Shown: positions 41,475 to 64,000 of the stretch, in pieces
How positions within the stretch are numbered: the stretch's first letter is position 1
Layout: every line of letters begins with the position of its first letter
From: Candidatus Zhuqueibacterota bacterium
GTDB taxonomy: Bacteria; Zhuqueibacterota; Zhuqueibacteria; Thermofontimicrobiales; Thermofontimicrobiaceae
NCBI GenBank assembly: GCA_034506395.1
Contig: JAPDPQ010000003.1
Coordinates: 230,693-294,692 of the forward strand
DNA length: 64,000 bases
Direction of reading: 5' to 3'
Program-made: the position numbers and the translations under genes
Notes under the pieces: model-generated
The model's database searches: none
The model's input: the letters and a program-made list of their open reading frames with translations, nothing else
Told to the model about the DNA's origin: nothing

Positions 41475-41542
41475 AAATTCGGCGAGAATGAATTTCGGTC
41501 AAACTAGAAATTCGCTGGCAACCTTGGCTTTCAAAAATGGGT

Positions 41543-43453: not shown

Positions 43454-43560
43454 ACTACCATCAATGTCTTAACTCGTTCAAGTGAATTATCAAAATTGGC
43501 AATCACAGTGGTGACTCGCTGATCGATTCCTCAAAAAACACGCTTAATCGGCAACAACAG

Positions 43561-43616
43561 ACTGATCACTGATTACTGATCACTGATTACTGATCACTGG
43601 CTACTGATAACTGATT
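43561..43616. repeat. Heptanucleotide tandem array (ACTGATC/ACTGATT), about 8 units; second locus
   Basis: The unit is the same as at 14925-14997. The array overlaps the last ~10 codons and the stop of the lpxL-like CDS (tail ...QLSVASDQ). Confidence 0.9.
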
Positions 43617-45963: not shown

Positions 45964-46446
45964 TTAGGACGCTTTCTCGATAAGCATGTTGATCAGTAGC
46001 CGCATGGCATCTCGAGCACTTTGGGGATCATCGATTTGCCCGAAGGTGAATCTGCAACCAGCAGATAAGGGGATGCCTTCAAGTTGATAAAAGCGATCAG
46101 GGATTGGAGGATCTTTTTTATCTTTGATACTGGCAACAACGACAATCGGCGCATTAAAATTTCTGGAGCAATGGTCCAGAATCGATTTGGTAAATTCCAG
46201 CGCTTTTTTATCTTCCCAGTCAAAAATAATAATAAATCCCAGTGTCTTTTGGGACACCAGGTCTAATGAGCGCAAATTCAATTCGGCGCTAATCCCATAC
46301 AGGTGCAGCATCAAATTTTCATTTACTTCCAACCGACCAAAGCTGACGGATTTGCTGCTGAAATCAATACGCTGGCAAATTGCACGGACAAAAGCTTCTG
46401 CTTCATTCGATGCGTGACTGATGATTGCAACTTCCCCGATCCTCAA
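45964..46446 (-). CDS. Small Ras/MglA-like protein lacking a P-loop (putative pseudo-GTPase)
   Basis: The size and strand/helix periodicity resemble a small GTPase. 'VAIISHASNEAEAF' sits where GxxxxGK(S/T) is expected, 'LYGISAE' where DxxG is expected, and 'VVVASIKD' where NKxD is expected. Confidence 0.45.
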   Translation of the reverse strand: MRIGEVAIISHASNEAEAFVRAICQRIDFSSKSVSFGRLEVNENLMLHLYGISAELNLRSLDLVSQKTLGFIIIFDWEDKKALEFTKSILDHCSRNFNAPIVVVASIKDKKDPPIPDRFYQLEGIPLSAGCRFTFGQIDDPQSARDAMRLLINMLIEKAS

Positions 46447-47808: not shown

Positions 47809-49947
47809 CTACATCATGGCGGTTTTCAGGCGAATATCCTTAATCGCTGCTTTGCGCATCATGTTTTCCGAAGCGGAACGCGTTGCCGCGATTAAGATTT
47901 TCCGGATCGAAGACTTATCTACTTCATCCCAGGCGATTAAGGGTACGAGTTCGTCCAATTTAAATTGATATCGAATCACATCCATCGTCACATTATTTTG
48001 ATCGAGAAAATTCATCGCAGCGACCGCATAGGGCAATTGGTAGCGCGCTGTTAGGGAATGAATCAGATATGAACTGTATTCCCATGTCTCAGGCTTGGTA
48101 CAATCAACCGCGAATATGAAACCAGCGAGTTTTGATTTCACCGACTCTAAAAAGACATGGAATGGCTTGTCCACCGACACCGCAATTAATTGATATGAAG
48201 TGAACCCATCGATCCGAATTCTCCCCACGTCCAATTGCATATCACCTAATGCCTGGATCTTGGTCGACGTAAAATGATCTTGCGTCAAAATGTCCATCAA
48301 TTCATCTTTGCAATCATCATCCACACTGATCACGACGATATGGTTCTTCAAAGCAGCTTGTTCTGCTGATGTTGCAAATTTCTTTTCATATTGGTCCGAT
48401 ATTGGGGGGCGATCCGCAACTGGAACCCGATCAGTCAGCGAAGCAATGACTCGAGGCTCCTCTTCAGCCGATAACTCGACCGCCTTGCTGGGCGGCTCAA
48501 CAGGCGGTTCAGGTTCAGCCTGCGACGTGAGATCACGCATTGCCGTGGGCCGATCCTCCCGCGCACTGATACTATACTGCTGAATCAGCTCTTCATCGAC
48601 GAAAGTCTCCTGTGAAATTTCAGCCGTCTCATCACGTTGAACTCGGCTCGGCTGGACGAATTCATCCGCTTCCATTGGCTCTGGTTCAATCGGCGCAGCC
48701 CTGTCATCTGGCGCTTTGGGCAGAACCTCGGATGCCTCGCTTTCGGGCTTTGACACGGTCACAGCACGCTTCTCCTGCTCAATCCGCTCAAGGATCGGCC
48801 GGATCTCTCGCTCGATCTCTTTAAACTTAGGAAGCGGCTGACTCTCCAATTCAATCTTATCCACCAGTTCGGTCTCAACTGATTCACGTTCATCTGACGA
48901 GACTTCTTCAGCTTCCATCGATTCCAACTTTTCCGATATCAAGCCTGACTGCTGTTGCGGTAGTGGCTTGGCCTCTGGTGGAATCGTCGGCTTAATGAAT
49001 CCCTGCTGATATAGCCGCACAATCCGTTTCAATGCCACAAGGTCATCCAAACCGCTATCCTCAATAATCTGATCGACCTCTCGTTTCCCATCAAACAGCT
49101 TCACAAAATTGGCGATTTCACCATTGACTCGCCTTTTCTGAATTAGCATTCTGAATGTCGGAGTAATGGTGAATGCGGTTCGCGGTGAGGATAATTGGCT
49201 GATCAACTGTTCGCGGAGTTCCAGTCGCTTGATCCCATGGAGCAGTAACCCTAAGTTACTGACCGAAATCTCGTCCGGCACATCGATCTCCTTGAATACC
49301 ATCGTGAAATAGCCTCGATTCCAGGTCAGCATCTGATAGATCGCAGGCTCTTGTTTGATGTCACCCAGGCTGGCATTGACCACAGCACCATCCCGAAAAT
49401 AGACTTGCCCGGTTCTTCGGCCATTGCTCAGCGTCAATACTCCAGTTTTTCTCTCTACCCCAAAGCTCTCGATCAAATCCGCTAAAGTGAGTTGATCCAA
49501 TCGACCCGAAAATCTCATATAAGCATCCAACTGCTCGCTTTTTCTTCGCTCCAGCCGTCGCAATACCATTCGAATATGAGCGACAACTTCCTTGACATGA
49601 AGCGGTTTGACCAAATAGTCTTTTGCCCCCAATTCAAAGCCGCGCACCCGCTGCTGGATATCGCGCTGATTGGTCAAAAAGATCAGCGGGATCGACTTGG
49701 TGTTAGGATCAGCTTGAAGCCGTTCCAACAATTGAAAACCTGTCAATCCTGGCAAATTCACTTCGGTCAAGACCAACTGCGGTGGGGATTGCTGGATCTC
49801 TTCCCAAGCCTTATTGCCATTGGAAGCCGTAATAACGGTAAAACCTGAGGCCTCAAGGTTCTCTTTGAGAATCTGCAAATTCTTGGCATCCCCATCTGCC
49901 ACCAGCACTGTTGGATTCATCATACCATCTTCTCGCTGTATGGACAA
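47809..49947 (-). CDS. Atypical response regulator: receiver (Asp-to-Glu acceptor) + DUF4388/PATAN + acidic linker + C-terminal P-loop-less Ras-like domain
   Basis: The REC domain reads 'VLVADGD...QLVLTEVNLPGLTG...IFLTNQ...YLVKPL'. The DUF4388 region reads 'FSGRLDQLTLADLIESFGVERKTGVLTL'. The C-terminal ~170 aa ('HIVVISVDDDCKDEL...AVAAMNFLD') resemble the neighbouring 160-aa protein. The start is a TTG. Confidence 0.8.
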   Translation of the reverse strand: MSIQREDGMMNPTVLVADGDAKNLQILKENLEASGFTVITASNGNKAWEEIQQSPPQLVLTEVNLPGLTGFQLLERLQADPNTKSIPLIFLTNQRDIQQRVRGFELGAKDYLVKPLHVKEVVAHIRMVLRRLERRKSEQLDAYMRFSGRLDQLTLADLIESFGVERKTGVLTLSNGRRTGQVYFRDGAVVNASLGDIKQEPAIYQMLTWNRGYFTMVFKEIDVPDEISVSNLGLLLHGIKRLELREQLISQLSSPRTAFTITPTFRMLIQKRRVNGEIANFVKLFDGKREVDQIIEDSGLDDLVALKRIVRLYQQGFIKPTIPPEAKPLPQQQSGLISEKLESMEAEEVSSDERESVETELVDKIELESQPLPKFKEIEREIRPILERIEQEKRAVTVSKPESEASEVLPKAPDDRAAPIEPEPMEADEFVQPSRVQRDETAEISQETFVDEELIQQYSISAREDRPTAMRDLTSQAEPEPPVEPPSKAVELSAEEEPRVIASLTDRVPVADRPPISDQYEKKFATSAEQAALKNHIVVISVDDDCKDELMDILTQDHFTSTKIQALGDMQLDVGRIRIDGFTSYQLIAVSVDKPFHVFLESVKSKLAGFIFAVDCTKPETWEYSSYLIHSLTARYQLPYAVAAMNFLDQNNVTMDVIRYQFKLDELVPLIAWDEVDKSSIRKILIAATRSASENMMRKAAIKDIRLKTAMM

Positions 49948-50683: not shown

Positions 50684-51367
50684 TCATTTGTTATCACTTT
50701 TTGGCCCAGGACGATAGATATACACGGTGTCGACAATTGTTTTATAAACGAAAATGCAGTCGTAATACGTGCTATCTCCTGCTGAAAACCAGTCCCACCC
50801 GCGACGCCCTGGGCTTGATGAATCGGTATTTGGAAGAAAGTTTAGCGCTGATTCATTATAATCCCACATCTCAAACATCACCGTTGTGGAATCGCGCTCC
50901 AGCTTGAGTTTCATCGGAAGGTCTTTATAATTCTTATCCAAGCTTCGCAATAATGATATGAAAATGTTGTAGGCTGGTTTTCGCTCGGTATAATCGTTTA
51001 CCATATTCGGATCTGAATTTTGGGCAACGATTTGAAAATTGGCTTTGAATTCCCAATTGTTCATCAAGTCCTGCGCGTTTTTCGAAACGTATTCGATAAA
51101 ATAGATCTCATCCGACGGATATACCCGCACTAGGTCCTTGGGACCAAATCCATTTCTGCCTACATCAATTATCTCCATCCGGGTCACCAGAGTTTCAGGA
51201 ATAAAGAATTCATCCATCAGCAGTTTGATTAAGCTTTGGTTTGTAATGGTCATCATTGGCACGCTGATCTGAGTGACCCTAGCTTGGGATGAATTGAACG
51301 TTTGAGCGAATGACCAAGGCGCAGCCATCGCACAGATGATGAACATTTTAAAAAGAAAATTTTTCAT
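50684..51367 (-). CDS. Hypothetical secreted protein
   Basis: A signal peptide 'MKNFLFKMFIICAMAAPWSFAQ' is present. The ATG at 51367 has a GGAG upstream; the ORF track extends to 51400. Confidence 0.55.
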   Translation of the reverse strand: MKNFLFKMFIICAMAAPWSFAQTFNSSQARVTQISVPMMTITNQSLIKLLMDEFFIPETLVTRMEIIDVGRNGFGPKDLVRVYPSDEIYFIEYVSKNAQDLMNNWEFKANFQIVAQNSDPNMVNDYTERKPAYNIFISLLRSLDKNYKDLPMKLKLERDSTTVMFEMWDYNESALNFLPNTDSSSPGRRGWDWFSAGDSTYYDCIFVYKTIVDTVYIYRPGPKSDNK

Positions 51368-51576
51368 TCTGCTTTCTCCAAAGTTTTCTTTATATTTCAT
51401 TCCGATGATCGGAAGCGATGAATCAGCCTACTTAATTGGTGCAAAATAGATGAATCCGACAAAATTTCGGCCAGCCCTTTTCATCTGTCCCACCTCTTGA
51501 AACGAATCAGCTCGCGCTTGCGATACTGCTGGCTTTATTAGTTTCTGGTGTAAAATGCAGAGTTGCAATAAGCCGT

Positions 51577-51853: not shown

Positions 51854-52927
51854 TCATTTCTTCGGCTTGACCTGATCCCACCAGGTCAAAAATACTTGAT
51901 AAAACTCCATGGTCTTTTGTTCATTAGCTGGCAACTGACTGGTGCTGAATGCGAAAATTTCGCGGTCCGTGCCTCGAGTAATCGACCCAGTCCGTAAATA
52001 ATTACTCTGCTTCTTGAAGCCACTGTCGATTAGCATGGTGGATTGATTCCCCTCGACCAAGCAAATCCGAATTTCCCTGCGATTAGGCTTGTAAAGCAGA
52101 TAAAATTCAAACCGGCGATCTCGATGCTGAAAAGTCACTCGCGATGTAAGATCTCCCGTTTCATACATCATAAAACTTCTGACCACAGGAATGAATTGGC
52201 TGGGATGTCTTTTCATCCATTCCATCAGGTCATCGATGATAACTGAAATATCGCTGCGTTTTTTGGCTTGTTCACCGCTGATCAATTGAATATCCAACTG
52301 TCCTGATTCAGCTGAAATTTTGGTATCTGCAATTGCTGAACCAGAATGATGAGAGAGAATGATATTTCTTCCAGCAGTGTGCTGATTCACGGCGACATCA
52401 TTGATTGCAACTGTTTGCCCCACCTGCGTCGGTTCGACTCTAAAAATGGGCGATAGTTGGGTCGCATTGTCATGCAAAATATCGGTCGATTTCTCTAATT
52501 GAATTGGCGGCAGTTGATCCGGCAAGATGGCCGGCTCAATTGGTTGAGAGATCGGCCGCTTTGGGACATTTAGTAAATTAAGATTGGGGTGCTGGTTGAT
52601 GACGGACGTCACATCCCGATTCAGCAAATCAGTGTCGACAATTTCTGCCCGTTCTGGTTGTGCCATCGCCCCATTCTCATTTTGAACTTTCGGCATAGGA
52701 ACTTCGTGCCGTTTGATCAGCTTGATCCGTTCTGGAGAAATTTTCTCAATATCGAGTTCGCGATACTTTTTCGTGAACTGGATGTTCAATGGAGGGATCT
52801 CTGAAGTTTTGAGAAAAATGTACAATAATATGATGAATAGCACGACCATGAGATCGCACATGCGCCGGTAATTGGTGATTTTGCCTTTCAACTCGCCCCA
52901 ATTGTATCTTTCAATGATCCATTCCAT
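51854..52927 (-). CDS. Membrane-anchored protein with an ExbD-like N-terminal TM segment, a Pro-rich linker and a novel C-terminal domain; sits in the TonB position of the cassette
   Basis: 'RRMCDLMVVLFIILLYIF' parallels 'IRLIDVVLI(V/L)LFGF' of the two adjacent ExbD proteins and includes the TM Asp. The linker reads 'PKRPISQPIEPAILPDQLPPIQ'. I see no TonB_C-like pattern. The gap to the upstream exbD is 14 nt. Confidence 0.5.
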   Translation of the reverse strand: MEWIIERYNWGELKGKITNYRRMCDLMVVLFIILLYIFLKTSEIPPLNIQFTKKYRELDIEKISPERIKLIKRHEVPMPKVQNENGAMAQPERAEIVDTDLLNRDVTSVINQHPNLNLLNVPKRPISQPIEPAILPDQLPPIQLEKSTDILHDNATQLSPIFRVEPTQVGQTVAINDVAVNQHTAGRNIILSHHSGSAIADTKISAESGQLDIQLISGEQAKKRSDISVIIDDLMEWMKRHPSQFIPVVRSFMMYETGDLTSRVTFQHRDRRFEFYLLYKPNRREIRICLVEGNQSTMLIDSGFKKQSNYLRTGSITRGTDREIFAFSTSQLPANEQKTMEFYQVFLTWWDQVKPKK

Positions 52928-52941
52928 GCTATTCTCCTCTG

Positions 52942-53355
52942 TTACTGTTGTTCCAAATTGATCCTTGGATAGGACAAATTTTTGAGAATCTGATGCCTCT
53001 CACAGAGGTCCATCACATCTACCGTTGTTTGAATCATGGTTTCTGCATCTGGCTCGATCACGAGGATCATCTGCTTATGATTGTTGCGATAATCATTATT
53101 AAGCTGAACTACTCGCTGCTCCAATTCGGCTATCCCTTCAATTTCGTTCGTCGTCTCCTGATTGATCAGCGAAAAATGATGATCATTCTGAATGTTAAGA
53201 AACACGATCTGTTGCTCAACTTCTTGTTTCGCCTGACCATAATTGGAAGGTAACTTGATCTGACTTTTATTCTTGACGTCAGTGATGCTCAAAAATCCGA
53301 ACAGCACGATGAGTACAACGTCTATGAGGCGAATGATTGTTCCAGCTCTGAACAT
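52942..53355 (-). CDS. exbD: Biopolymer transport protein ExbD/TolR
   Basis: The 137-aa protein has the N-terminal 'IIRLIDVVLIVLFGFL' with the conserved TM Asp, and a typical periplasmic domain length. Confidence 0.85.
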   Translation of the reverse strand: MFRAGTIIRLIDVVLIVLFGFLSITDVKNKSQIKLPSNYGQAKQEVEQQIVFLNIQNDHHFSLINQETTNEIEGIAELEQRVVQLNNDYRNNHKQMILVIEPDAETMIQTTVDVMDLCERHQILKNLSYPRINLEQQ

Positions 53356-53382
53356 ACCAATATTCCTTGGAATATGTAGAAA

Positions 53383-53790
53383 TTACTTCTTGTTCTCAAG
53401 AATCACATCGACCCCCTTGGGAATACCTAATTGATCACATAGGTTGGCAAGCGCAAGAGTATACTTGATTGGCGTATTCCAATTGGATCGGATCCGCACG
53501 CGAGTATCTATTTTGTTTTTTATGTTCTCCAGCCGTTTGGTTTCGACATATTCTCTCAATGTGCCGAAATCGGTGATGACTTTGCTCTCGTCTTCTACCA
53601 AGAATTTCCCCTCTTTGGTAATACCGATGATCAATAATTCCTCTTTATCTGGATAAACATAGGCCATCTGGGTGCTCTTAGGTAGTTCCAGCACGCTTCG
53701 ACTGCTGATTTCACTGATGGAGATGAATCCAAATAATAGGATCAAAACGACATCAATGAGACGAATTACCGTTGCATTTCCGCTGGTCAT
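53383..53790 (-). CDS. exbD: Biopolymer transport protein ExbD/TolR (second copy)
   Basis: The 135-aa protein has the N-terminal 'VIRLIDVVLILLFGFI' with the conserved TM Asp. Confidence 0.85.
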   Translation of the reverse strand: MTSGNATVIRLIDVVLILLFGFISISEISSRSVLELPKSTQMAYVYPDKEELLIIGITKEGKFLVEDESKVITDFGTLREYVETKRLENIKNKIDTRVRIRSNWNTPIKYTLALANLCDQLGIPKGVDVILENKK

Positions 53791-53812
53791 ATTGTCCGTT
53801 CCTCCCGATGGC

Positions 53813-55399
53813 TTAGCCCTGGCCTAGAGCTTCAAACTCCAGTCGCGCCTTTCGTATTCCTTTGGCGGTCACTTGGACAGAGTTGAACCCTGGCTTGCTC
53901 CCGAGTGTAAAATATGCTTCCGCAATGCCATTCTCGTCGGTCGTCGTGGTGAAAACGGTTTTCTTCTCGGGAAAATATCCTTTTCCTTTGATGACTTTGT
54001 AGGTGACTGGCAAATTGGGCACTGGATTATCAAATTTGTCGACCACCTTGATAACGAATGGTTCTTTGAGCTCTTTTCCGGCGGCGGAGTTTTGGTGGTT
54101 GCCCGAAACATAAATGACCCGGTCGGGTTCAGTCGGTTTCCCCCAGGCAGTGAAATAGATCGCTGAATTACTGCTCTCTTTCAATCGCACTTGAACACGA
54201 TTTTCTCCGGCCGTACTACCTAAGATCAATTCGGCCTGTGCTAAGCCGCTGGCATCACTAGTTACTTCCTGCTGTTTTCGGCCATTGGCCAGCTTGCCAT
54301 TGCCACTGACAACTTCAAATACCAGCGTTTTGTCGGCGACCCCATTCCCATTTCCATTGGAAATCTGAACCACTAACGGTTTTTCCAGTCGGTTGTTCAC
54401 CATCACTGCTTGATTATCCCCAGAAATCGGTATCAGCTTATAATCGCTATTCCCATTTCGAGGATTGGACACCAGCGAATTTGCCACATCAAAAATCGGT
54501 TCTTTCGATTTCAATTGACGATCGACTGCGGCGATCACGGCTTCAGATAGGTCGTATGCTGGACTCTCCACTGGAGGAGCCAGTTCGGATTCATCATCAG
54601 GAATTGAATTATCCAGCGTTTGCTCCATCTGATGAAGCCTTAATCGGAATTGCCCGGCGAGATCGGTTACTCGATCAATTCTTTTGCGGAAATAACTATA
54701 TGTTTGGGTGGTAAACAAATTCAAGAAGACACTTACTACCAAGCCCATAAGGGTGGTGACTAGAGCCACACCCATTCCGCTGAGGATCTTATGTTTTTCA
54801 AGATCGCCGCCAAAAAAGGTGAGAAACATTCCCCATACCGTCCCTAAAAGCCCTAGCGCCCCAGCCGTGTCGGAGAAAAATGCCATCTTGGCCTGGAACG
54901 TCTGGAAACGGCTCTGCTGAATCTGGACGAAATCGACAATCTCGTTGCTAAATCCTTCGGCAGATTTGCGCGTTTGATAAAGGTCAAGCATGTGCTTGAA
55001 CAGTCGGCTCAACATGCTGTCCTTGGTGTTCTTGATCACCCGGATGATGTCAACTAGAGTGGACTTGCGCAAGTCAAGCCGTTCTAATTCTCGGGCATGC
55101 TGACGATCCAACGCTAGTTCTGTTCCTTTGTAGAACACGGTCATCATCCCCAATATGAAATCGGCAATGATGATATACCGCCAAAATCCAGCCAGCAGCG
55201 TAATGTCCCAAAGCGACTTCAAGTCTCGAATATTGGTCAACAAATCAGGATTCATGCCTTGTCCGCTTGCTTGTGTGGCAGTGCTGTCGCTGGCAGGCGT
55301 TTGAGCCAATGCGACGAATGTCTGAAATGCCACAAATAACAACATGCTGAAAATAGCAGCTAATGCAATGCGCTTGTTGATCATATCTCTGCTCCTCAA
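53813..55399 (-). CDS. exbB: MotA/TolQ/ExbB proton-channel protein fused to two C-terminal Ig-like (Big_1/invasin-like) domains
   Basis: 'FFSDTAGALGLLGTVWGMFLTFF' and 'GMGVALVTTLMGLVVSVFLNLF' are the ExbB TM2 and TM3 blocks. The C-terminal segments 'LVVQISNGNGNGVADKTLVFEVVSGNGKL...SGLAQAELILGSTAGENRVQV' and 'FVIKVVDKFDNPVPNLPVTYKVIKGKGYF...NGIAEAYFTLGSKPGFNSVQVTA' look like Big_1 repeats. Confidence 0.8.
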   Translation of the reverse strand: MRSRDMINKRIALAAIFSMLLFVAFQTFVALAQTPASDSTATQASGQGMNPDLLTNIRDLKSLWDITLLAGFWRYIIIADFILGMMTVFYKGTELALDRQHARELERLDLRKSTLVDIIRVIKNTKDSMLSRLFKHMLDLYQTRKSAEGFSNEIVDFVQIQQSRFQTFQAKMAFFSDTAGALGLLGTVWGMFLTFFGGDLEKHKILSGMGVALVTTLMGLVVSVFLNLFTTQTYSYFRKRIDRVTDLAGQFRLRLHQMEQTLDNSIPDDESELAPPVESPAYDLSEAVIAAVDRQLKSKEPIFDVANSLVSNPRNGNSDYKLIPISGDNQAVMVNNRLEKPLVVQISNGNGNGVADKTLVFEVVSGNGKLANGRKQQEVTSDASGLAQAELILGSTAGENRVQVRLKESSNSAIYFTAWGKPTEPDRVIYVSGNHQNSAAGKELKEPFVIKVVDKFDNPVPNLPVTYKVIKGKGYFPEKKTVFTTTTDENGIAEAYFTLGSKPGFNSVQVTAKGIRKARLEFEALGQG

Positions 55400-55408
55400 A
55401 ATTGGATG

Positions 55409-57160
55409 CTAATTTACAAATTTAATTTCCACAATTCCGCCTGGCACGTGTTCAGGTTTCGGTTGAGATCGAATGTCAATCTCCAACCTTCGCGATATTT
55501 TCTGGACAAAAAAGAACTTTTCATCACTATGTTGCCATTGTCCCTGCTTATCTTGCCAATAAAAAGCATAACTATAAACGTCAGGGCGTATGATATTGCC
55601 ATGATCATCCCGCCAATCCCAATGAACCGATTTTGGAACGGGCGCTTCTGCGGCGAAAGTCTTGATGATTTGATGATTCCCATCTCGAACTTCTAGTTTC
55701 CACTGGCCATGATATTTGCGCATCTTGACTGATGAAATCTTAAAATGGACCGATTTTGGAGTGAGGGAATGATATTGCCGGCTGCTCAGTTGCTGAACAT
55801 CCCCGACCGTCGTCCGATTCGAATCCAATTGGAGCATCGGCTGAAACTGAATCTGGTTTGCTAAAAACGGCGCATGATTGATCATATAATCGCGCAGGTG
55901 TTTCGCCCGCTCTATTGCGCTTTCCTCAGGGATAAAACGTACCGAGGCAATCTTTCTCTGAAGCAGGTTCTCCGCCAGCCAGGACTCATATTTTTTCGAG
56001 TAGCGGGAAGCCGTTATCAGCTTTGGCAGCCGTTGATTCGTCGTTCCGCCATGATTATACAATTTCGATACTTCGACCAGCGAATCGTTTATAGCTAATT
56101 CTTCGGCATCGAGATTTTTAAGTGCGCTGACTGGTACATCTTCCGCCACGCTATGATTGATTTGTTGCGCCAGAATCTCCAGTTTCTCCGTCTCGATGTC
56201 CACAAAAAATTGGGGTTCTATGTCAAATCGCAGAAAATGACCTTCATCGTAGCGGCTCCGCGTCAGGTTAATGAAGTTTTCATCATGACCTAGTTGATAA
56301 ATGATACTGATCTGGTGGCTACCGCTGCTCAGCCGATTGATCTCATACAGCGGATAATCATAATTATAGTTAAATGAAAGCCGAGGTGAAACTTCAAAAC
56401 GGGCTCCGATCTTCGCAGCTTGCTGCACCACCCCCACTCTCAAGGCAGAAAACGCCACCGGCCGCGCCTCCACCAACAAATTCGTCTGCCAATGCCTTTG
56501 CATATAATTGAAAGAGAGCGAACCCGTGAACCACCGCCACGAATAACTTACCCCCCAATCGTAAATCAGCGGCTGTCGGTACTCATCTTTTGACAACGAA
56601 ATATCAGGACGATTAAGATGATCGCACGAAAACCCAACCGCAACTGTGGACCAGGGAAAGAAAATGACGCCTGCGCCAATGCTCTGGGCAAATTTGACCG
56701 TCCCATCAGCAAATACAGGATCCCCAGGATCAGTCATATCAAAATATTTTTGATGATATGATTTGGTGAATAAATTATAGCGTAACCCTACCGCAACTCG
56801 CTGAATTGGCTGCTTTGCCAGCACCAACGAAAAATTGGTTTGGCCATATAGGGGTGCTGTGAAGTTTTGCCCTGTCACTGCCAAGCTAAGCAAGCCTAAA
56901 CTTTCCTCAGGCAAAGAGTAACCGATATAGCTGCTGCGAAGACCGAAATCATTGCCCTTCAAAAAACCCAATTGGTAAACCTTCATGCCCACCATGATCT
57001 GGTGACGATGGAACGGCACAACCGCTGGATTGACGAACAATGTTTCTTCACTATAGCTATCAGATGGATCACCGGATATCAAATTTTGAGCCGAGATGGT
57101 TGAGATTATCACCAACTGAACCATCCCGACCATCAGCCAAAACCAACATGTTCGTGTCAT
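55409..57160 (-). CDS. PorP/SprF-like outer-membrane beta-barrel protein with a ~300-aa C-terminal extension ending in a FlgD-Ig/CTD-like beta-sandwich
   Basis: A signal peptide is present (MTRTCWFWLMVGMVQLVIISTISAQ; ATG at 57160 with a GAGG upstream; the ORF track extends to 57196). The N-terminal half shows '...FVNPAVV...', alternating beta-strand periodicity and 'GSHQISIIYQL', as in PF11751 proteins. The C-terminus reads 'VHWDWRDDHGNIIRPDVYSYAFYWQD'. Confidence 0.5.
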   Translation of the reverse strand: MTRTCWFWLMVGMVQLVIISTISAQNLISGDPSDSYSEETLFVNPAVVPFHRHQIMVGMKVYQLGFLKGNDFGLRSSYIGYSLPEESLGLLSLAVTGQNFTAPLYGQTNFSLVLAKQPIQRVAVGLRYNLFTKSYHQKYFDMTDPGDPVFADGTVKFAQSIGAGVIFFPWSTVAVGFSCDHLNRPDISLSKDEYRQPLIYDWGVSYSWRWFTGSLSFNYMQRHWQTNLLVEARPVAFSALRVGVVQQAAKIGARFEVSPRLSFNYNYDYPLYEINRLSSGSHQISIIYQLGHDENFINLTRSRYDEGHFLRFDIEPQFFVDIETEKLEILAQQINHSVAEDVPVSALKNLDAEELAINDSLVEVSKLYNHGGTTNQRLPKLITASRYSKKYESWLAENLLQRKIASVRFIPEESAIERAKHLRDYMINHAPFLANQIQFQPMLQLDSNRTTVGDVQQLSSRQYHSLTPKSVHFKISSVKMRKYHGQWKLEVRDGNHQIIKTFAAEAPVPKSVHWDWRDDHGNIIRPDVYSYAFYWQDKQGQWQHSDEKFFFVQKISRRLEIDIRSQPKPEHVPGGIVEIKFVN

Positions 57161-57476
57161 TGTCAGCCTCTGCTCGATCGCCCTTTGCCCTGACAATTTT
57201 ATGGCCTCCTCGATATTGTACTGAATTTCTTATGCGACTTTTTTCGAATGAAGAGACAAATAAGCTTAAGTTCTTCTCTCAGAACCTCATCTCACGAGGA
57301 AAATGGTTCTCGGTAACTATTTCATGCGAAAATACGACGGCTAACCCCTCGCAACACATAACCCGGCATCGTAATCAGCCTGATAATACCAAAGATTTCG
57401 CTCTGTGCCGCGACAGAGATCATTTGCGCTGTTGGAACTTGGAGTGAACTTCTCAAGCTGCTCTCATCAAGCAGAG

Positions 57477-60400
57477 CTACCGCGCCAGCACCACATACCC
57501 ATGGGCAATGATGCGATTTTGATCCTCCAACAAGTAGAGATAGACGCCAGGTTGTGCTGGATTTCCATAGCGATCGTTCCCATCCCAGAGAAATTCATAG
57601 CCCTGGGTAACCGTTGTGGTATTGATCATTCGACCTGAGATATCAAACAGCTTTAGCACAGGAGCAACCACGCCCAATTTTTCGAAATTGAAACTTACTC
57701 GATCGTTAAAGCCATCATCGTTTGGTGTGAACGGATTGGGCCGCACTACCACTTCGCCTTCATAGACATCGATAGTCAACACTGCTTGATTATTTTCTTC
57801 GTTGCTTTCTTTGATTATATTATTGGGATCGACCACTAATTTAATTTGATGGAGGGACCGATCGTTAAAATGAAGCATTCGATCGATCGGAAAACTACCA
57901 GGAAATCCCAATATCTGAACCATCGTATCGCAAAGGACTCGCTCATTATCCCATATTATCACTTGAATCGGATCGATTATCGGGGCGGTGTGCCATTCGA
58001 TTTCCGCAGACAGTTGCACCGGCTGATGAACCATCACCTTCTTTTCGCTCAGCGTAAACGACTTAATGAGCAAATCCGGAAATACATCTTTGATGTAAAA
58101 ACCGTATTGGTCTTGTTTCATCCGATTGCTGGGATGAGAAAGGTCAGCCGCATCAATTCTGATGTCCACCCGCTGGCCGGGCCGAAAACCGATCGGGTCG
58201 GTGTAACTGAGTCGGTAGGCTTGGGGCGATCCAGCGATCGTCGGTGAGACCGGCCTTCCCATCACCGCCATCCGAATCGAATCCCTCGCCACTCCAGCGA
58301 CATCATCCTTGATCTCCACCAAGATTTCAGGATTAAAATCAATTCCTCGGGCCTCGGGCGCTGGAACTCGCAGGGTAATGTACGGTGGCTCTCGATCTTC
58401 TATGGTGTAGAACACGAAGGAACTGTCCCGGATGCGATTCGCTGGATGCGCCAGATCGCTTCCCGTGATCTCCCAATGCAATTGCTGGTTGTACAAAAAC
58501 GGTCGCTCCGGTACAAAGCGCCAGCGATAGCTGGTGGAATCTCCAGCAATCTGCGGCGATATTGGTTGCCCTTGAAACTTGAACCGAAGCGAGCTCAAAT
58601 CCACGCCAGTGTGCTGATCTTGGATGATCGCTTCGAATTCTGAATCCAATGGGATATGGGAACCTGGTGGTCCTGGTTTGATCCAAACAACTTCAGGTGG
58701 CAGTCGATCGTAGGCTGTGATAAATTCGCAGCTATCAGTTTTCATCACGTTGGGACCATCCTTTGCCAGATCGTGGGCATCCACTTCCACCAATACGCGC
58801 TGACCATATCCAAATGGAACATTCGGTCGGTGCTCCACCCGATAGTCCAGCACTGTGCCGCTGATGGTTCTATTGACCAGACGTCCATTGACCTGCACGC
58901 GGATGGAAGCGCTGTCGACACCGCTGAGATCATCCCTGACATGAAATGAAATAATGCAATCCGGCGGCACTTCACTCTCCCCTTTGCTGGGTTGATAAAG
59001 CGTTACGTACGGCGGAGCTAAATCCTTCTCGCGCATGATCCGAAATCGGTACCGACAGGTGTCGGCGGCATTGGCTGGATCGCTTTGATCTTCGGCGTAA
59101 ATCTTCACCTCGATCCATTCAAGATAATTCCGCGGCGTTGAGAATTGATAGCTGATATTTAATCGTTTGCCGCTGCCTTCTTGCTCGAAGTTGACCAGCG
59201 CCCCATTGACCCACATCTTGATCGAGTTCGCAGCGACCCCAGCACGATCATCGGTGATTGTGGCACGAACCAGCGGCGTGGGATTCACGGTGGTATCCCC
59301 TGGAATTGGAACTAATGGGACAATGACTGGTGGTTGCGTATCAATTTCGGTTTTAAACCAGAACTCAAACGGCCGCATGATGTTAGGCTGTCGTGCCCGA
59401 TCGCGGGCTGTGAGTACGACAGATAAGCTATCATTATAGCGAAACCTTCTAGGCGGCCCATAGCTGATCCAGTAATCGCTTGAATCCCCACTCAGCTCAA
59501 ATGGAACCTTGATATCGTTGATGGTAAGCTGGATGGAGTTGCGATCTACCCCTGCAAAATCATCTATTAACTCGATAATGACGTTCGTATCTGGATTCAC
59601 TTCTTTGGACTCGTGCAACGGGGCATAATATTTCACCCATGGCGCTAACGAATCCCGAGCGATGATGAAATAAAAACTCGAATCCAATGAATTCGATGGT
59701 TTAACCAAATCAGTGGCATGAATTCGGACCGACACGGAATCCATTTCTCGAAACGCCGGTTGAAACCGATAACGCACTGCGTAAGCTGCTGGTGTCCCCT
59801 CAACCTCCGGATGAATAATCCGACCATTGATCGAAATCTTCAGCGAATCCTTGTCCACCCCTGATTGGCCATCTGTCACAATAAAACTGAGCATAGTATC
59901 GGCTGGGATCTGACGGGCCTTAGGCTGCGGATATAGATCGACGATTTTCGGCGGCTCAAGATCTCTTTTGATAAAAAATCGATAGGAATCTGGCTTCATC
60001 ACATTGGGAGTAAAAGCCAAATCAGCCGCTCTGATCACCACTGATACGGTATCATTGTAGTCAAAATCGATTTCAGGATCGTAAATCATGGTAAATCGTT
60101 CGATGGTGCCAGTGATCCTCGGTTTTACCAATCTTCCATTCACTTCCATCTCAAGCGAACTGCTATCAACCCCCATGTAATCGTCCACCACATCGACTTG
60201 AATATTAGTATTAAGTGGAACATTTGTGGCCTCGGGAGCTGGAATATGATTCTCCGTATATGGCGGGACTTTATCTGGGAACATCTCTCCCAAGCCGATA
60301 TAGGTGCAGATGATGTGGACCTTGCCAGGCGGCACCGTCACAGGATCCCACCACATGGCGACTGCGCTGTCATGAACGATGCCTAACTCCCCATTGGTGT

Positions 60401-62048
60401 TGTAATGCCATTTTGTATTGAAAATATTGCTCCAGTTGGCGATCACAAATCGATCCGGTGGGGTAGCTCCATATCCTTTGATGGTCCCTTGGGCTGAGAA
60501 TAGCACTTTGCGCTGAGTGCCCTCGATGGCGATCCACCAGCTCGGGATATTTGGCGCATGAAAGTCCTGCTCAAAACCAGTAAAAGGATAATTTGATGTG
60601 CGAATCAACGCGCTGTCGTTCTGTCCCAGCATAGTGTCGAACAATACCCGTATCCCCACCTGGTGAGCAACACGATCATTGTTGATGATGATATATTGCA
60701 GTTGGGCAGTATCTTCATATTTAGTCTCAGACCATTCGCTGACCACAAGGGATACCTTTTGCTTGATTTCAAGATTTCCATAGCCCCAGTTTCGCTCTAT
60801 GCTCTTATTATCCCTCGAAACGTACGGATCGTCTAACAATCGTCCTTCTTGACTGCCATAGATCACCTCCTTTCCATCAATCCAGAGCGTACTGAACGAC
60901 GTATAGGGATTCGGGTGGCCGAACAAAATCGCTTTGTTATTGTCGTATGGCGTAATTGGTAATCCGCCAGTAATGCCCAACGTGAAATTTGTGCCAGGAT
61001 AACGATCGCTTACTGCCACTTCAATAAAATCGTTCTGCAGTGTTACTCGCTGCACTGGTTTTAAACTGAAATTGATGCTCCAAGTGGTATCCTGACCTTT
61101 TACCCCGACTGGTGTTGCCTCTTGCGGAGTCACTGCGTTCTGATAATATTCATTATGATAGCGCAGCGGATCAACGCTGTAAATCTGGACGCGGTAGGTT
61201 CCTGGTCGTAACCCAGCCGCACAATAATATCCACGAGAATTGCTGTAACATTCTGAGCTCCATTCGCCGTTCTGCCAATTGGTTACCACCACCCATGCAT
61301 TGGCAATGGGTGGCCGGTCTGGTTCATCTCCCAGCACCAGACCAGCGATCGCTCCACCCTTCTCCAAATAAAAATTGATATTGGAACTGGTATCGCCCAC
61401 CGTCACCTGGATCGCTTGAGCACTATCTTGGGTGCTTACGTTAGGATAATACGTGAGCAAATATCCGCTCGGTAACGCCGATGCCTTCACAACATGTGGC
61501 CCAGCGGGCAAGGCAGGACTGATATAGCTCCCATCGGGTCTGCCATCGATAAAACCCCGTAAGCTATATGTCTTTGCATCAAAAAATCCGATGGTGCAAT
61601 TTTGCGTGATCGGCTGCCCTGCCTTATTGAAAATCCGACCCGAAATAAATCCCCCTCGCTCCAGGTAAAAGTCAATCCCGCTCACATGCTGATTGTTATT
61701 GATCTTGATCAGCGTTGCATCAGACTTCTCAAGGACGTTATTGTAATAGAAATTTAAATAACCCGCCTTATTCTGAACGCGAACGTAATACTGCCCAACA
61801 GGCAATTGGGTGATCTCGTAACTCCCATCATCCTTCGAATAGGCAATGCGCTGAAAGTAGGGACCTGTAAAAGCAATTGCGCGAACTTCAACTTTCGCCA
61901 GAGGCTCATGAGAGGCAGTATAAATGTGGCCAGAAATTTTGCCGTTTTCTGTGGCTTGCGAAAAGATGATACGATGATTTCCAAAAATTGATACTATCAA
62001 AATTGCATAAATGATCATTCGCTGCTGTCGTGCCCGTTGCCAATTCAT
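57477..62048 (-). CDS. 1523-aa secreted multidomain adhesin-like protein with a type-B T9SS C-terminal sorting domain
   Basis: Domain order as read from the translation:
- A signal peptide.
- Three CarboxypepD_reg-like repeats (GKISGHIY...DDGSYEITQLPVGQYYVRV, and so on).
- A central domain of about 270 aa with no motif I recognise.
- Seven tandem Ig-like repeats of about 104 aa (D..PP.I....P......VP.D..I.F.V.DD.SGVD..S......NG).
- A CARDB-like domain.
- The C-terminal 'RPNPFTPNDDGFNDRVSFNF...WDGNDRYGNPAQPGVYLYLL', matching the PNaFTPNgDGiND gliding-motility-associated C-terminal domain. Confidence 0.85.
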   Translation of the reverse strand: MNWQRARQQRMIIYAILIVSIFGNHRIIFSQATENGKISGHIYTASHEPLAKVEVRAIAFTGPYFQRIAYSKDDGSYEITQLPVGQYYVRVQNKAGYLNFYYNNVLEKSDATLIKINNNQHVSGIDFYLERGGFISGRIFNKAGQPITQNCTIGFFDAKTYSLRGFIDGRPDGSYISPALPAGPHVVKASALPSGYLLTYYPNVSTQDSAQAIQVTVGDTSSNINFYLEKGGAIAGLVLGDEPDRPPIANAWVVVTNWQNGEWSSECYSNSRGYYCAAGLRPGTYRVQIYSVDPLRYHNEYYQNAVTPQEATPVGVKGQDTTWSINFSLKPVQRVTLQNDFIEVAVSDRYPGTNFTLGITGGLPITPYDNNKAILFGHPNPYTSFSTLWIDGKEVIYGSQEGRLLDDPYVSRDNKSIERNWGYGNLEIKQKVSLVVSEWSETKYEDTAQLQYIIINNDRVAHQVGIRVLFDTMLGQNDSALIRTSNYPFTGFEQDFHAPNIPSWWIAIEGTQRKVLFSAQGTIKGYGATPPDRFVIANWSNIFNTKWHYNTNGELGIVHDSAVAMWWDPVTVPPGKVHIICTYIGLGEMFPDKVPPYTENHIPAPEATNVPLNTNIQVDVVDDYMGVDSSSLEMEVNGRLVKPRITGTIERFTMIYDPEIDFDYNDTVSVVIRAADLAFTPNVMKPDSYRFFIKRDLEPPKIVDLYPQPKARQIPADTMLSFIVTDGQSGVDKDSLKISINGRIIHPEVEGTPAAYAVRYRFQPAFREMDSVSVRIHATDLVKPSNSLDSSFYFIIARDSLAPWVKYYAPLHESKEVNPDTNVIIELIDDFAGVDRNSIQLTINDIKVPFELSGDSSDYWISYGPPRRFRYNDSLSVVLTARDRARQPNIMRPFEFWFKTEIDTQPPVIVPLVPIPGDTTVNPTPLVRATITDDRAGVAANSIKMWVNGALVNFEQEGSGKRLNISYQFSTPRNYLEWIEVKIYAEDQSDPANAADTCRYRFRIMREKDLAPPYVTLYQPSKGESEVPPDCIISFHVRDDLSGVDSASIRVQVNGRLVNRTISGTVLDYRVEHRPNVPFGYGQRVLVEVDAHDLAKDGPNVMKTDSCEFITAYDRLPPEVVWIKPGPPGSHIPLDSEFEAIIQDQHTGVDLSSLRFKFQGQPISPQIAGDSTSYRWRFVPERPFLYNQQLHWEITGSDLAHPANRIRDSSFVFYTIEDREPPYITLRVPAPEARGIDFNPEILVEIKDDVAGVARDSIRMAVMGRPVSPTIAGSPQAYRLSYTDPIGFRPGQRVDIRIDAADLSHPSNRMKQDQYGFYIKDVFPDLLIKSFTLSEKKVMVHQPVQLSAEIEWHTAPIIDPIQVIIWDNERVLCDTMVQILGFPGSFPIDRMLHFNDRSLHQIKLVVDPNNIIKESNEENNQAVLTIDVYEGEVVVRPNPFTPNDDGFNDRVSFNFEKLGVVAPVLKLFDISGRMINTTTVTQGYEFLWDGNDRYGNPAQPGVYLYLLEDQNRIIAHGYVVLAR

Positions 62049-63729
62049 GCTTTCACCTGCTGTTGCAATACCCTTTTATCGAACAATCGATACCCTATGT
62101 TGAAACAAGAAAAGCCTCTTGGATTCCTAACGCCTCATCAACTATCAACAAAGATTTCGAAACCATCAGTTCATGCGGAAATTAATCACCTGACAATTCG
62201 AGTTATCTCGATCAAACAATCAATGAAATTTTGAAAATGCGAATCGATAAAAATGCGAGCGATGTCAATCAAAGCTTATTCAAAATAAAGAATCGATCTG
62301 GAAAAAGCAAGTCATTTTGGCCCTCACAATGAGAAACCATCGCAAAAGCGATTACATTTTTGAATCAGTCTTTCATTTCATGGATTGATGTCTGACTTTG
62401 CGAGCTCGCGATCCTTTCAATAATTTTTTTTCTTGCCAGAAAAATCTTGCTCGATTTTGATAAGATCAATATCCTCCTGGCTTACTCAATACTCAATCTG
62501 GTTGAATTCTGACCATGCCCCGGTTTAAATCTGAGATATTCGTCCCATCGAACGGCGATCCATCGGTCGATTAATTCGCTTTCGCCAAATTTTTTCCAAC
62601 CTAAAATTTCTCACTTTGATGATTACTGAAGGTCTGTCGTTCCCTCATTTTTCTTGGAATGATTGATCGGCGGGCTGCTCTGAAAAAAAACAGCAAAAAA
62701 GAATGAATGCAGCTCACTCCCCCAAACTTCCGCTTCAGATCCGCGGCCCATTTTAAATGATACAATCGGTCCTTCATGGACTCTAACTTCTTCGCCCATC
62801 ATTCAGTTTGGGACTTATTTGCCGCCGGAACATAATGCTCTGGTTTTCTATTTTGTACCAATCGGAACGTTGAACATTCCTCCAAATTATGCAGCCAGAT
62901 CAGGAAATAAGCTCTAATAGGCCTTTTTTATCGCCCCTTGAAATCTCAAAAAATGACAAATAGCCCACAGTTGACCCTTCCTGTAACGCGAAAAGGTCCA
63001 GCTCCATCAAAATAGCGCAATCCATCAGATTCAATAGAGAACCTCTCCTCTGGCGTTAGGAAACAGCGTTTGACCCAATCCTGTGGTCGATATTTGGCCG
63101 CCTTAGCGACTCTTTGGCTCATCGCGATTCCCAAATATCAATGCTATTGGCATTCTTTGGTGCTTTATCAGCCGTTTATTGCTCCGTTTGAACAAAAATC
63201 ATCCCTTCACCTGCAATTTCCATGCCGATGATCGTAATTTGCTACAATTAAGGCAAGCCGATTTTTCTATGGATCAGAAGTTAATTCGAGTGGCAAATAA
63301 AGGCGAGTCTTCTTGACCACCAGATGGTTATATTGTTACGATCGAAAACAAGCATTCATTTCGCAAATCAAATTGAACAATTTCGAAATCAACAAATAGA
63401 TCGGGGCATGAGATCTGACAATTCTTCTAAAATTGTTTTTAAAAAAGCTAATCGCCGAGATTCAATTGCTTGGTTTTCATTAAAGGCTTGAGAATATATT
63501 GAACACCTGTTCGAAAATCATGCAGAAAATTCACAATTCCCTGGTCGAAACAAAAGCAGTTCGATCGATCGGCAATTTAAATTCTTCGTTTTGATTGAAA
63601 TTTTACTTCTGGCTTCCAACTGAAAGATTTGGATAAAAACGAGCATCGCGTTTTTGTGTCTTCCGATATTGTGGAGTTAAATAGTGCCTGAGCGAAAATC
63701 CAGCTCTCTGGCATTTCGATCGCAGGCAT

Positions 63730-63784
63730 AAATCTGTGACCACAATGATCTCAATGTAACCAGATTCCTCACTTCGTTCGGAAT
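63730..63784. repeat. Family-B repeat, copy 2
   Basis: AAATCTGTGACC...AACCAGATTCCTCACTTCGTTCGGAAT; compare 35981-36035. Confidence 0.5.
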
Positions 63785-63930
63785 GGCCCTCTTAGGAAAG
63801 ATTTAATAGTCGCCATTCAAGCAAGAAATTGATTGGGGATCTCAATTGCCGAAAACCACCCTGGCCAATGAGACCTCCAAAGAAGCGATAAACTAAATTG
63901 ATGAAGCTCGAAGCGAACGAACTGCTCTTT

Positions 63931-64000
63931 CTATTTCATCAACACCATTTTTAATGAGGACTGAATTTCTCCTGCCCGTACGCGAGCAAAATAGATGCCG
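63931..64000 (-). CDS. 3' end of a gene encoding a protein with a type-A T9SS (Por) C-terminal sorting domain; the rest lies outside the window
   Basis: The minus-strand frame reads ...GIYFARVRAGEIQSSLKMVLMK followed by a stop (TAG at 63933-63931). 'G(I/V)YF.R...G......K.VL.K' is the canonical last strand pair of type-A CTDs. The fragment is too short to appear in the ORF track. Confidence 0.6.
   Translation of the reverse strand, partial: GIYFARVRAGEIQSSLKMVLMK

Follow-up and report, generated by a model that had tools for sequence, protein, structure and literature searches.

Candidate force-transduction module of Zhuqueibacterota and related bacteria: an ExbB-ExbD-ExbD motor gene set conserved beside a PorP-like/type-B CTD protein pair

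We analyzed 64 000 nt of DNA from a Candidatus Zhuqueibacterota bacterium (GenBank assembly GCA_034506395.1, contig JAPDPQ010000003.1, positions 230 693 to 294 692 of the forward strand); this whole stretch is called the window. The host group is candidate division KSB1, or Zhuqueibacterota (PMC11683472), and NCBI places in it a protein with 100% identity to the 357-aa product described below. Six minus-strand open reading frames (ORFs) fill window positions 51854-62048. In order of transcription they encode a large secreted surface protein (the cargo) ending in a C-terminal domain (CTD) that resembles type-B sorting domains of type IX secretion systems (T9SS), a PorP/SprF-like outer-membrane protein, an ExbB/TolQ-family protein extended by immunoglobulin (Ig)-like domains, two ExbD/TolR paralogues and a 357-aa protein which we call the anchor. 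We found that this set, joined by p238, a secreted orphan of 238 aa, is conserved in at least five related bacterial lineages. Judging from sequence comparisons, we see an even chance that it makes a self-contained, envelope-spanning, proton-powered force-transduction module acting on an outer-membrane complex of the PorP-like and type-B CTD proteins. By analogy, such a module may be best seen as a T9SS-accessory machine.

ORF calling reproduced the six genes and the intergenic gaps (14, 27, 22, 9 and 280 nt, counted from the anchor gene upstream) that had been described in an earlier reading of the window made from its letters and ORFs, the sequence-only reading. As the ExbB homologues begin at MINKR, the probable true start of the ExbB gene is the ATG at 55384, and therefore the 9-nt gap between the PorP-like and ExbB genes becomes 24 nt. 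The intergenic gaps contain no convincing minus-strand terminator, and counts of promoter-like sequences do not exceed the shuffle expectation. The set of six genes turned out to be incomplete: p238 and, in most lineages, two lipoproteins with tetratricopeptide repeats (TPRs), designated TPR6 and TPR7, belong to it as well.

Conservation of the gene cluster

Flanking DNA of the anchor and ExbB-Ig relatives was taken from public contigs and from one genome per species of the Genome Taxonomy Database (GTDB), and the neighbouring genes were mapped with hidden Markov models (HMMs) made from the module families themselves. The counts given below cover 41 anchor loci in other genomes, with at least 9 kb of sequence upstream and at least 3.5 kb downstream; the loci carry L numbers. 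The recurrent order, TPR7, CTD protein, PorP-like protein (~590 aa), ExbB (with Ig extension), ExbD_a, ExbD_b, anchor (~350 aa), TPR6 and p238, was found in KSB1/Zhuqueibacterota, Calditrichota, JdFR-76, Gemmatimonadota, Rhodothermales, Balneolales, Cyclonatronaceae and Melioribacteraceae (Ignavibacteriota). Taxon labels are those of the deposited records, in which JdFR-76 and two HK-STAS-KSB1 metagenome-assembled genomes (MAGs) are labelled Deferribacteres.

ExbB and ExbD were each present in 40 of the 41 loci, p238 downstream of the anchor in 39, TPR6 in 34, the CTD protein in 32 and TPR7 in 20; ExbB carried the Ig extension in 33. The PorP-like gene was found in 34 of the 41, so the linkage of related cassettes to PorP/CTD genes that the sequence-only reading expected to see elsewhere does occur. 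The complete core (CTD protein, PorP-like protein, ExbB and two ExbDs) was found in 30 loci. Synteny shows that the CTD protein, the PorP-like protein and the ExbB(Ig)-ExbD-ExbD-anchor set form a real conserved unit, as had been proposed from the window alone.

The association is kept through rearrangement. The CTD/PorP pair follows p238 in five loci (L002, L102, L112, L116 and L118), and CTD genes are inserted between ExbB and ExbD in two others (L021 and L022). At least four MAGs carry two complete paralogous modules (L007 with L008, L010 with L089, L021 with L093 and L017 with L119); each outer-membrane pair therefore keeps its own motor. Loci of related species are not fully independent of each other, while the rearranged and duplicated versions are. 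The arrangement recurs in dozens of species-level genomes, far more than chance would allow. We give hardly any credence to the explanation that an ordinary Ton energizer operon happens to lie beside a T9SS cargo/PorP pair. Coincidence would agree with the 280 nt that separate the cargo gene from the PorP-like gene and with the marginal scores that the window proteins reach in profile searches, but the same neighbours are met across several phylum-level lineages, stay together through rearrangements and are duplicated together, which contradicts it.

A reduced variant is seen in chromosomes of Rhodothermales (L149-L152), whose genes stand in another order, namely p238, an ExbB of ~225 aa lacking the Ig part, two ExbDs and the anchor, with no PorP-like or CTD gene nearby; TPR6 follows it in L149, L150 and L152. 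Modules are present also in MAGs deposited as 'uncultured Cytophagia bacterium' (L007/L008/L090, L091, L103, L104, L107, L109, L115, L124 and L131). The modules of L008/L090 and L091 are ~48-64% identical to the KSB1 window proteins and the other Cytophagia-labelled ones are more distant; these labels are probably wrong.

The ExbB-ExbD-ExbD motor

The ExbB-family protein (528 aa; 53813-55399, minus strand) matches PF01618 MotA_ExbB with 54.9 bits (gathering threshold, GA, 22.9) and Big_1 with 48.7 bits (GA 34.9). The channel part occupies residues ~60-245, and the two C-terminal Big_1 domains make up the Ig part at residues ~330-528 (nt 53816-54412). A PDB profile search matched positions 58-235 to ExbB (6ye4/7ajq), and the motifs of the second and third transmembrane (TM) helices, LGLLGTVWGMF and GMGxALxTTxxGL, are invariant. 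The two ExbD/TolR paralogues, a (135 aa; 53383-53790, minus strand) and b (137 aa; 52942-53355, minus strand), match PF02472 with 36.8 and 47.3 bits, respectively (GA 25.4), and are orthologous to the first and the second ExbD of every locus. Each carries the TM Asp within RLIDVV, a motif kept in 71 of 73 loci for either paralogue. Given that the Asp is kept in both ExbDs and that the ExbB TM2/TM3 motifs are invariant, the motor looks functional. The channel would be formed by ExbB, presumably a pentamer, around a heterodimer of the two distinct ExbD paralogues.

None of the three proteins could be assigned to a specific equivalog (TolQ, ExbB, MotA, TolR or ExbD) in NCBIfam, where all scores are far below the cut-offs: 24.8 against 221 for tolQ, 17-22 against 135-206 for exbB and 31-33 against 127 for tolR. 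The best NCBIfam matches of the three motor proteins, weak as they are, are to tolQ/tolR.

ExbB has no hydrophobic segment past residue 231 and a strongly basic stretch follows TM3; with the canonical ExbB topology, the two Big_1 domains are predicted to face the cytoplasm. An ExbB with predicted cytoplasmic Ig domains is unusual. In six Balneolales loci (L135, L138, L142, L145, L146 and L019) the Ig part is a separate ORF: the channel part has ~290 aa and the Big_1 ORFs have ~80-270 aa and lie in different frames, that of L019 being short. Where the N-termini of the Ig ORFs are shown, they lack a signal peptide. Such pairs could be a genuine gene split or a common frameshift. In several lineages the Ig part is missing altogether.

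The anchor protein

The candidate force transducer of the module is the 357-aa anchor (51854-52927, minus strand), which the sequence-only reading had counted as a third ExbD-like subunit. This assignment failed, as the protein has no PF02472 match and ExbD profiles never match the anchor ORFs. Since it is not ExbD-like, the motor has one ExbB and two ExbDs together with a separate transducer-like protein.

A hydrophobic helix core (residues ~20-47) is followed by a disordered linker (~60-205) and a conserved alpha/beta C-terminal domain (208-357; nt 51857-52306). An AlphaFold2 (AF2) model based on 26 homologues shows the TM helix, a stretch with pLDDT <50 at residues 63-205 (~160 residues) and a C-terminal domain with pLDDT ~90, which combines three short helices with six antiparallel strands and, at the end, a long helix. 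The model, hydropathy and gene order in ~80 loci agree on a TonB/TolA-type layout and on a position after exbB-exbD. A profile search among 1.84 billion representative proteins returned 257 relatives, nearly all of 300-400 aa and with the domain at the C-terminus; by these sequences the anchor family is small, coherent and uncharacterized.

The anchor has no Pfam or NCBIfam match, and a TonB_C/TolA identity was rejected, with no match of the family profile in the PDB (E-value ≤10) and none in Foldseek (E-value ≤1e-3) either; the sequence-only reading was right in not taking it for a TonB. The weak Foldseek matches of the C-terminal domain to PUR-alpha and CapZ (E-value ≥1.3e-2, TM-score ~0.2) were treated as noise.

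The helix core of the window anchor and of the other motor-linked anchors lacks an SHLS-type motor-binding His. Five variants (L107, L115, L124, L126 and L127), representing only one or two evolutionary events, have no motor genes and consist of the CTD protein, PorP-like protein, an anchor of 398-430 aa, TPR6 and p238. In all five, a His stands in the middle of the anchor helix within a TonB-like S/A-x-x-(x)-H context, e.g. LVLASVLHGTMLVAL, a hint that these anchors may have to dock into some ExbBD motor. A phmmer search of the N-terminal fragment of one such variant against the PDB gave no TonB.

These features bear on Ton-like uptake, in which a FadL-fold barrel would be a channel gated by a TonB-like anchor and the CTD protein a surface lid or a substrate-binding partner. 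The order exbB-exbD-exbD followed by a gene of TonB layout is the usual one of Ton operons in the Fibrobacterota-Chlorobiota-Bacteroidota (FCB) group, the barrel of the PorP-like protein is FadL-like (see below), and the His of the motor-less variants is TonB-like. Still, the anchor has no TonB_C domain, and the PorP-like protein has no plug or TonB-dependent receptor domain by Pfam. As the sequence-only reading had remarked for the cassette, no TonB-dependent receptor is seen nearby: there is none in the window and none among the genes listed within 10 kb in L001, L002-L003, L004, L005, L006 and L007. Conserved genes for substrate processing, binding proteins or inner-membrane transporters are absent from the module, and the passengers of the cargoes are structural Ig-like repeats. 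We consider uptake very unlikely.

The PorP/SprF-like protein

The 595-aa product of the gene at 55409-57196 (minus strand) matches PF11751 with 29.8 bits (GA 22.3), and PorP_SprF was matched by 21 of 23 homologues (best E-value 1.3e-14); NCBI names homologues 'PorP/SprF'. Family members have 559-665 aa, in contrast to ordinary single-domain PorP/SprF proteins of ~290 aa, and keep an extra C-terminal tail of ~290 aa. A 14-stranded beta-barrel is predicted at residues 66-301 (56294-57001, minus strand; AF2, block pLDDT ~57-85); its best Foldseek matches are 14-strand barrels of the FadL/TodX type (E-values 8e-8 to 1e-5).

The tail (residues 330-595; 55412-56209, minus strand) consists of an alpha/beta part and a beta-sandwich, and none of the 23 homologues has a Pfam domain there. 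As the number of barrel strands is even, the tail is predicted to be periplasmic. Profile-profile comparison revealed homology between residues 481-546 (window 55559-55756) and the core of the CTD in the cargo (hhalign probability 96.9%, E-value 1.3e-10); this CTD-like sandwich lacks the PNPFTPNGDGxND motif. The tail is our proposed handle for the transducer.

The cargo and its C-terminal domain

The cargo (1523 aa; 57477-62048, minus strand) starts with a signal peptide (hydrophobic segment at residues 11-30), followed by CarboxypepD_reg (residues ~38-330, 71.4 bits), an unassigned central region, seven tandem Big_5-like repeats (residues 586-1320, internal repeats by phmmer; Big_5 40.5 bits), a CARDB-like segment and the sorting domain. 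The latter, a type-B-like T9SS CTD assigned by CHU_C, TIGR04131 and motifs, occupies residues 1437-1523 (57480-57740, minus strand) and ends on the last residue of the protein. It passes PF13585 CHU_C marginally (27.9 bits, GA 27.0, residues 1437-1520) and carries the motifs PNPFTPNDDGFND, at its start, and WDGNDRYGNPAQPGVYLY; the CTD motif is kept in 15 orthologous tails. TIGR04131 was the best match in 9 of 10 tails (the window and nine orthologues), 2 of the 10 passing its cut-off (41.6 and 37.4 bits), and the type-A model TIGR04183 scored lower in every tail where it was listed (20.7-23.5 bits for the window cargo). Precomputed CHU_C matches with E-values ≤1e-5 exist for the orthologous cargoes of L001, L002, L004 and L007. 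One neighbour in L002 just passes the type-A CTD model (23.7 bits, cut-off 23).

A CTD gene stands immediately upstream of the PorP-like gene in 53 loci, and the total length of the CTD proteins lies between 154 and 1781 aa. In most cargoes, Ig-like repeats form long arrays. In a Balneolales subclade (L135, L138, L140, L142, L146 and L019) the cargo has 154-184 aa and is made of a signal peptide, ~40 residues and the CTD, so that across loci the passenger varies from none to ~1,700 aa. For this reason the giant adhesin cannot be kept as the core element that the sequence-only reading saw in it: since some Balneolales cargoes are signal peptide plus CTD, the conserved component is the CTD (the CTD plus its outer-membrane anchor), and the passenger is optional.

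The passengers are central to the question of gliding-type motility, with the motor propelling a surface adhesin as GldLM does with SprB/SprF in Flavobacterium or AglRQS with Glt/CglB in Myxococcus. SprB is a type-B CTD adhesin held on the PorP-like SprF and moved by a proton motor (PMC10202324, PMC9143113), and the inventory of the module mirrors that of Agl-Glt, with a TolQ-like protein, two TolR-likes, disordered-linker anchors, TPRs, barrels and an adhesin (PMC11761067). The repeat arrays would suit an adhesin, the cytoplasmic extension of ExbB could couple to a track, and two PATAN response regulators lie downstream in the KSB1 lineage. On the other hand, the cargo of the Balneolales subclade cannot act via an adhesin, the Ig extension is missing or split off in several lineages and the PATAN regulators are kept only in close relatives. 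Homologues of Gld/Glt track or cytoplasmic components were not seen in the module, and no carrier has a known motility phenotype. A gliding role for the module is possible; as the whole explanation we regard it as doubtful.

p238 and the TPR lipoproteins

The seventh conserved member, p238 (50684-51400, minus strand; ORF and synteny), has a hydrophobic N-terminus ending AQ|T that we read as a signal peptide. There was no Pfam or PDB match for 28 members of its family and no NCBIfam match for the window protein, and p238 was rejected as a PorN homologue, with no detectable similarity in Pfam or PDB. In two Gemmatimonadota loci (L014 5067-7244 and L016 14568-16598) the p238 domain continues into a long C-terminal extension, giving 676-725 aa in total; in the extension of L016, the one scanned, EF-hand-like repeats were matched weakly. 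Neither a PorP-like nor a CTD gene lies within 10 kb in L016, and the L014 sequence starts only with the ExbB gene.

Besides their TPR repeats, TPR6 and TPR7 carry signal peptides of the lipoprotein type. Most lineages have both, while the sub-lineage of the window has lost them; no remnants of TPR6, TPR7 or other module genes were detected in the intergenic gaps of the window or in the 2 kb upstream. Homologues of GldL, GldM, GldK and GldN were likewise not found by Pfam or NCBIfam among the seven window proteins, TPR6 and TPR7.

A cargo-specific secretion energizer, i.e. an analogue or booster of PorKLMN that pulls the PorP-like protein and cargo off the translocon, or a separate export route, would have a one-to-one parallel to its parts in porP-porK-porL-porM-porN and PorE-PorP-PG1035. 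Export of type-B cargo specifically needs a PorP/SprF partner (PMC10202324), and the CTD-like sandwich of the PorP-like tail could recognize or mimic the cargo signal in the periplasm. A 14-strand barrel, however, cannot pass a folded protein of 1500 aa, and SprA would thus be required in addition; to keep one motor per cargo seems extravagant if GldLM is present; and neither the TPR lipoproteins nor p238 have detectable homology to PorK, PorN or PorW. We find this explanation unlikely.

The TPR lipoproteins flank the module, as would suit a Tol-Pal-like tether for envelope integrity, with ExbB, ExbD and the anchor standing for TolQ, TolR and TolA, the TPR proteins for CpoB and the PorP-like protein for the outer-membrane partner. 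The weak tolQ/tolR matches of the motor proteins point the same way; for PorE, a role as a Tol-Pal-like tether with a link to PorP has been suggested (PMC12204202), and CTD variants lacking a passenger would fit a structural role. Against a tether, the core genes yielded no domain resembling TolB or Pal/OmpA, every equivalog score falls far short of its cut-off, and two paralogous modules per genome with variable passengers are unexpected for a housekeeping structure. Such a role appears quite improbable to us.

Neighbouring genes

The remaining genes of the window are housekeeping genes, including those of arginine biosynthesis, lipopolysaccharide (LPS) core and lipid A; no T9SS core genes were found in the window, nor any RNA genes by Rfam and ARAGORN. 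Upstream of the cargo gene, ~1.95 kb (62049-64000) contains no ORF >65 aa, has the lowest GC content in the window (0.40) and shows no Rfam or tRNA match and no similarity to any fetched related locus. The same position is taken by a TPR lipoprotein gene in other lineages and by a secretin gene in the Zhuqueibacterota locus L001 (1-98), where it (STN, Secretin_N, Secretin) ends ~800 nt upstream of the cargo gene; no secretin gene was seen in other loci.

Downstream of the module, two minus-strand genes (46508-47734 and 47809-49947) encode response regulators with a receiver and a DUF4388/PATAN domain, one of them with an additional winged-helix domain. In L001 the module is followed by the same two regulators, and in L008 by two ORFs of matching size (711 and 399 aa); other lineages lack the pair. 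PATAN regulators are linked to control of surface motility in other bacteria. A block of LPS/outer-membrane biogenesis genes (30798-44519) adjoins the regulators; it contains several glycosyltransferases, a heptosyltransferase, DUF3108, an MsbA-like ABC exporter and a lipid A acyltransferase, the acyltransferase and heptosyltransferase being syntenic in L001 too. Five ORFs of 131-388 aa (3471-4628, 18260-19426, 40530-41474, 45452-45847 and 45964-46446) have no Pfam match at the thresholds used.

Discussion

In the proposed force-transduction module, proton flow through ExbB, ExbD_a and ExbD_b would drive the 357-aa transducer. Its C-terminal domain would reach the outer membrane and engage the periplasmic tail of the PorP-like barrel, with help from p238 and, in most lineages, from the two TPR lipoproteins. 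The barrel might then be pulled or rotated, with an effect on the CTD protein that it holds at the surface: this protein could be handed over from the secretion pore, locked or unlocked, exposed, displaced or released. The Ig domains on ExbB, predicted to be cytoplasmic, could tether or regulate the motor. Variants without a passenger and a private motor for each pair speak against pure adhesin propulsion and against pure general secretion alike; a motility-type role is still conceivable in view of the predicted cytoplasmic Ig extension and of passengers rich in repeats.

Several observations weigh against this interpretation. The window CTD is below the TIGR04131 cut-off of 35 bits (22.3 bits for the whole protein and 27.1 for the isolated tail); thus, the earlier assignment of a type-B CTD stands on PF13585 and on PNPFTPNDDGFND and falls short on the stricter model. 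Similarly, the PorP/SprF-like assignment is borne out by PF11751 and the homologues, but the TIGR03519 score is 39.9 bits against a cut-off of 90.55, even though the match covers model positions 10-291 of 292. Taken alone, both window assignments are marginal on curated thresholds, and they are solid only at the family level. The AF2 model of the PorP-like protein is of moderate confidence (mean pLDDT 67), and the cytoplasmic placement of the Big_1 domains is a prediction resting solely on topology. In seven of the 41 loci (L005, L006, L016, L120, L149, L150 and L152) the motor, anchor and p238 occur, but a PorP-like gene is missing within 10 kb; hence the motor set is able to occur without the outer-membrane pair. 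Finally, passenger-less CTD proteins make it unclear which object is actuated.

The principle of a proton motor, a periplasm-spanning transducer and an outer-membrane effector is already known from Ton, Tol, Agl-Glt and GldLM. By sequence, the parts belong to the broad Pfam families MotA_ExbB, ExbD, PorP_SprF and, barely, CHU_C, with no specific equivalog; the transducer and p238 fall into no described family. The combination (PorP-like protein with a CTD-like tail, CTD protein, Ig-ExbB, two ExbDs, transducer, p238 and TPR proteins) was not described in the literature searched, in agreement with the sequence-only reading, whose author knew of no system of this composition. A bolder claim, that we are dealing with an unrecognized and widespread trans-envelope machine of FCB and Gemmatimonadota, with an Ig-coupled 5:2 ExbBD motor and a new class of transducer driving a PorP/SprF-held surface protein, is put forward only tentatively. 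If true, it would add a further type of adhesin-propelling or surface-remodelling (gliding-like) apparatus and could bridge Ton/Tol and GldLM/KN evolutionarily.

How inner-membrane proton motors act on surface proteins is an open question for both the T9SS and gliding; a 2023 review calls SprB movement and the handling of type-B cargo still mysterious (PMC10202324). The module offers a compact, genetically closed form of the problem: a single operon-like cluster encodes the motor, the connector, the outer-membrane anchor and the surface protein, and there are natural variants that have no passenger, no Ig domains, or no private motor along with a TonB-like helix. It adds two orphan families, the anchor C-terminal domain and p238, to the short list of motor-driven transducers and their partners. 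A cultured carrier, Balneolaceae bacterium ANBcel3 (L020/L139), makes the model testable. The same 2023 review restricts CTD proteins to Bacteroidota (PMC10202324); our data extend PorP/type-B-CTD biology well beyond this phylum.

Comparison with known systems

The sequence-only reading drew its comparisons from SprB, GldLM and the Agl motor; it overlooked the closest formal parallel, the PorP-PorKLMN and PorE-PorP-PG1035 assemblies of Porphyromonas gingivalis. For type-B CTD proteins, a cognate PorP/SprF protein encoded next to them is both a requirement and a binding partner (PMC10202324, PMC9143113), and PorP complexes with PorE and the type-B protein PG1035 (PMC9143113). The module shares with SprB-SprF and PG1035-PorP-PorE a gene for a PF13585/TIGR04131-type CTD directly upstream of one for a PorP/SprF-family barrel. 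In most lineages a TPR lipoprotein adjoins the pair, as PorE, which has TPRs, partners PorP (PMC9143113, PMC12204202), and the passenger-less CTD variants recall the small, non-essential PG1035. In contrast to these pairs, the PorP-like protein of the module is twice the usual size and has a predicted periplasmic tail with a CTD-like sandwich, and the pair is joined to an ExbB/ExbD motor set, outside Bacteroidota and with scores below NCBI cut-offs.

As far as an entry in the reference list of PMC10202324 indicates, PorP is part of a PorKLMNP trans-envelope core. The likeness of the module to PorP-PorK-PorL-PorM-PorN (GldKLMN) lies in a PorP barrel combined with a proton motor of the 5:2 type, a spanning element, a lipoprotein and a periplasmic protein (PMC10202324). 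The motor, though, belongs to PF01618 and PF02472 rather than to GldL/GldM. The periplasm-spanning part is a protein of its own whose C-terminal domain is unrelated, and ExbBD plus this transducer stand in place of PorLM; the lipoproteins are TPR proteins, and p238 shows no detectable likeness to PorN.

With the Ton system the module has in common ExbB, two ExbDs and, after them, a protein in which one TM helix and a long linker precede a globular C-terminal domain, as well as the ExbB motifs and the ExbD Asp. It differs in that the anchor has no TonB_C by sequence or fold and, in the window protein, no SHLS-type His, that no TonB-dependent receptor is nearby, that ExbB carries two Ig domains and that the equivalog scores are low. 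From Tol-Pal, which likewise combines a TolQ/TolR-like motor, a protein of TolA layout and a TPR (CpoB-like) partner, and to which the weak tolQ/tolR matches point, the module is distinguished by the absence of TolB and Pal, a variable surface cargo and several paralogous copies in some genomes.

The Agl-Glt machinery of Myxococcus xanthus has one TolQ-like protein with a heterodimer of two TolR-likes, AglR5-AglQ-AglS, as is predicted for the module, and also disordered periplasmic linkers, TPR proteins, outer-membrane barrels and a surface end effector (PMC11761067). Only the motor is homologous: Glt has the TonB-CTD-like domains of GltG/J, the GltA/B/H barrels and the vWA lipoprotein adhesin CglB, whereas the module uses a new C-terminal domain, a PorP/SprF barrel and a type-B CTD protein. 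Glt-specific domains and the cytoplasmic partners Glt/GltI, AglZ and MglA are not encoded by module genes.

A survey of 2025 described a class of non-TonB transducers with a vWA domain, encoded beside tolQ-like, paired tolR-like and TPR genes (PMC12204202). The concept is shared with the module: both have a membrane-tethered protein that is neither TonB nor TolA, together with a TolQ-like protein, two TolR-likes and a TPR protein, and in both that protein is a proposed force transducer. The C-terminal domain of the module's transducer, however, is not vWA and matches nothing solved, and its candidate outer-membrane partner, the PorP-like protein together with the CTD protein, is identifiable by synteny.

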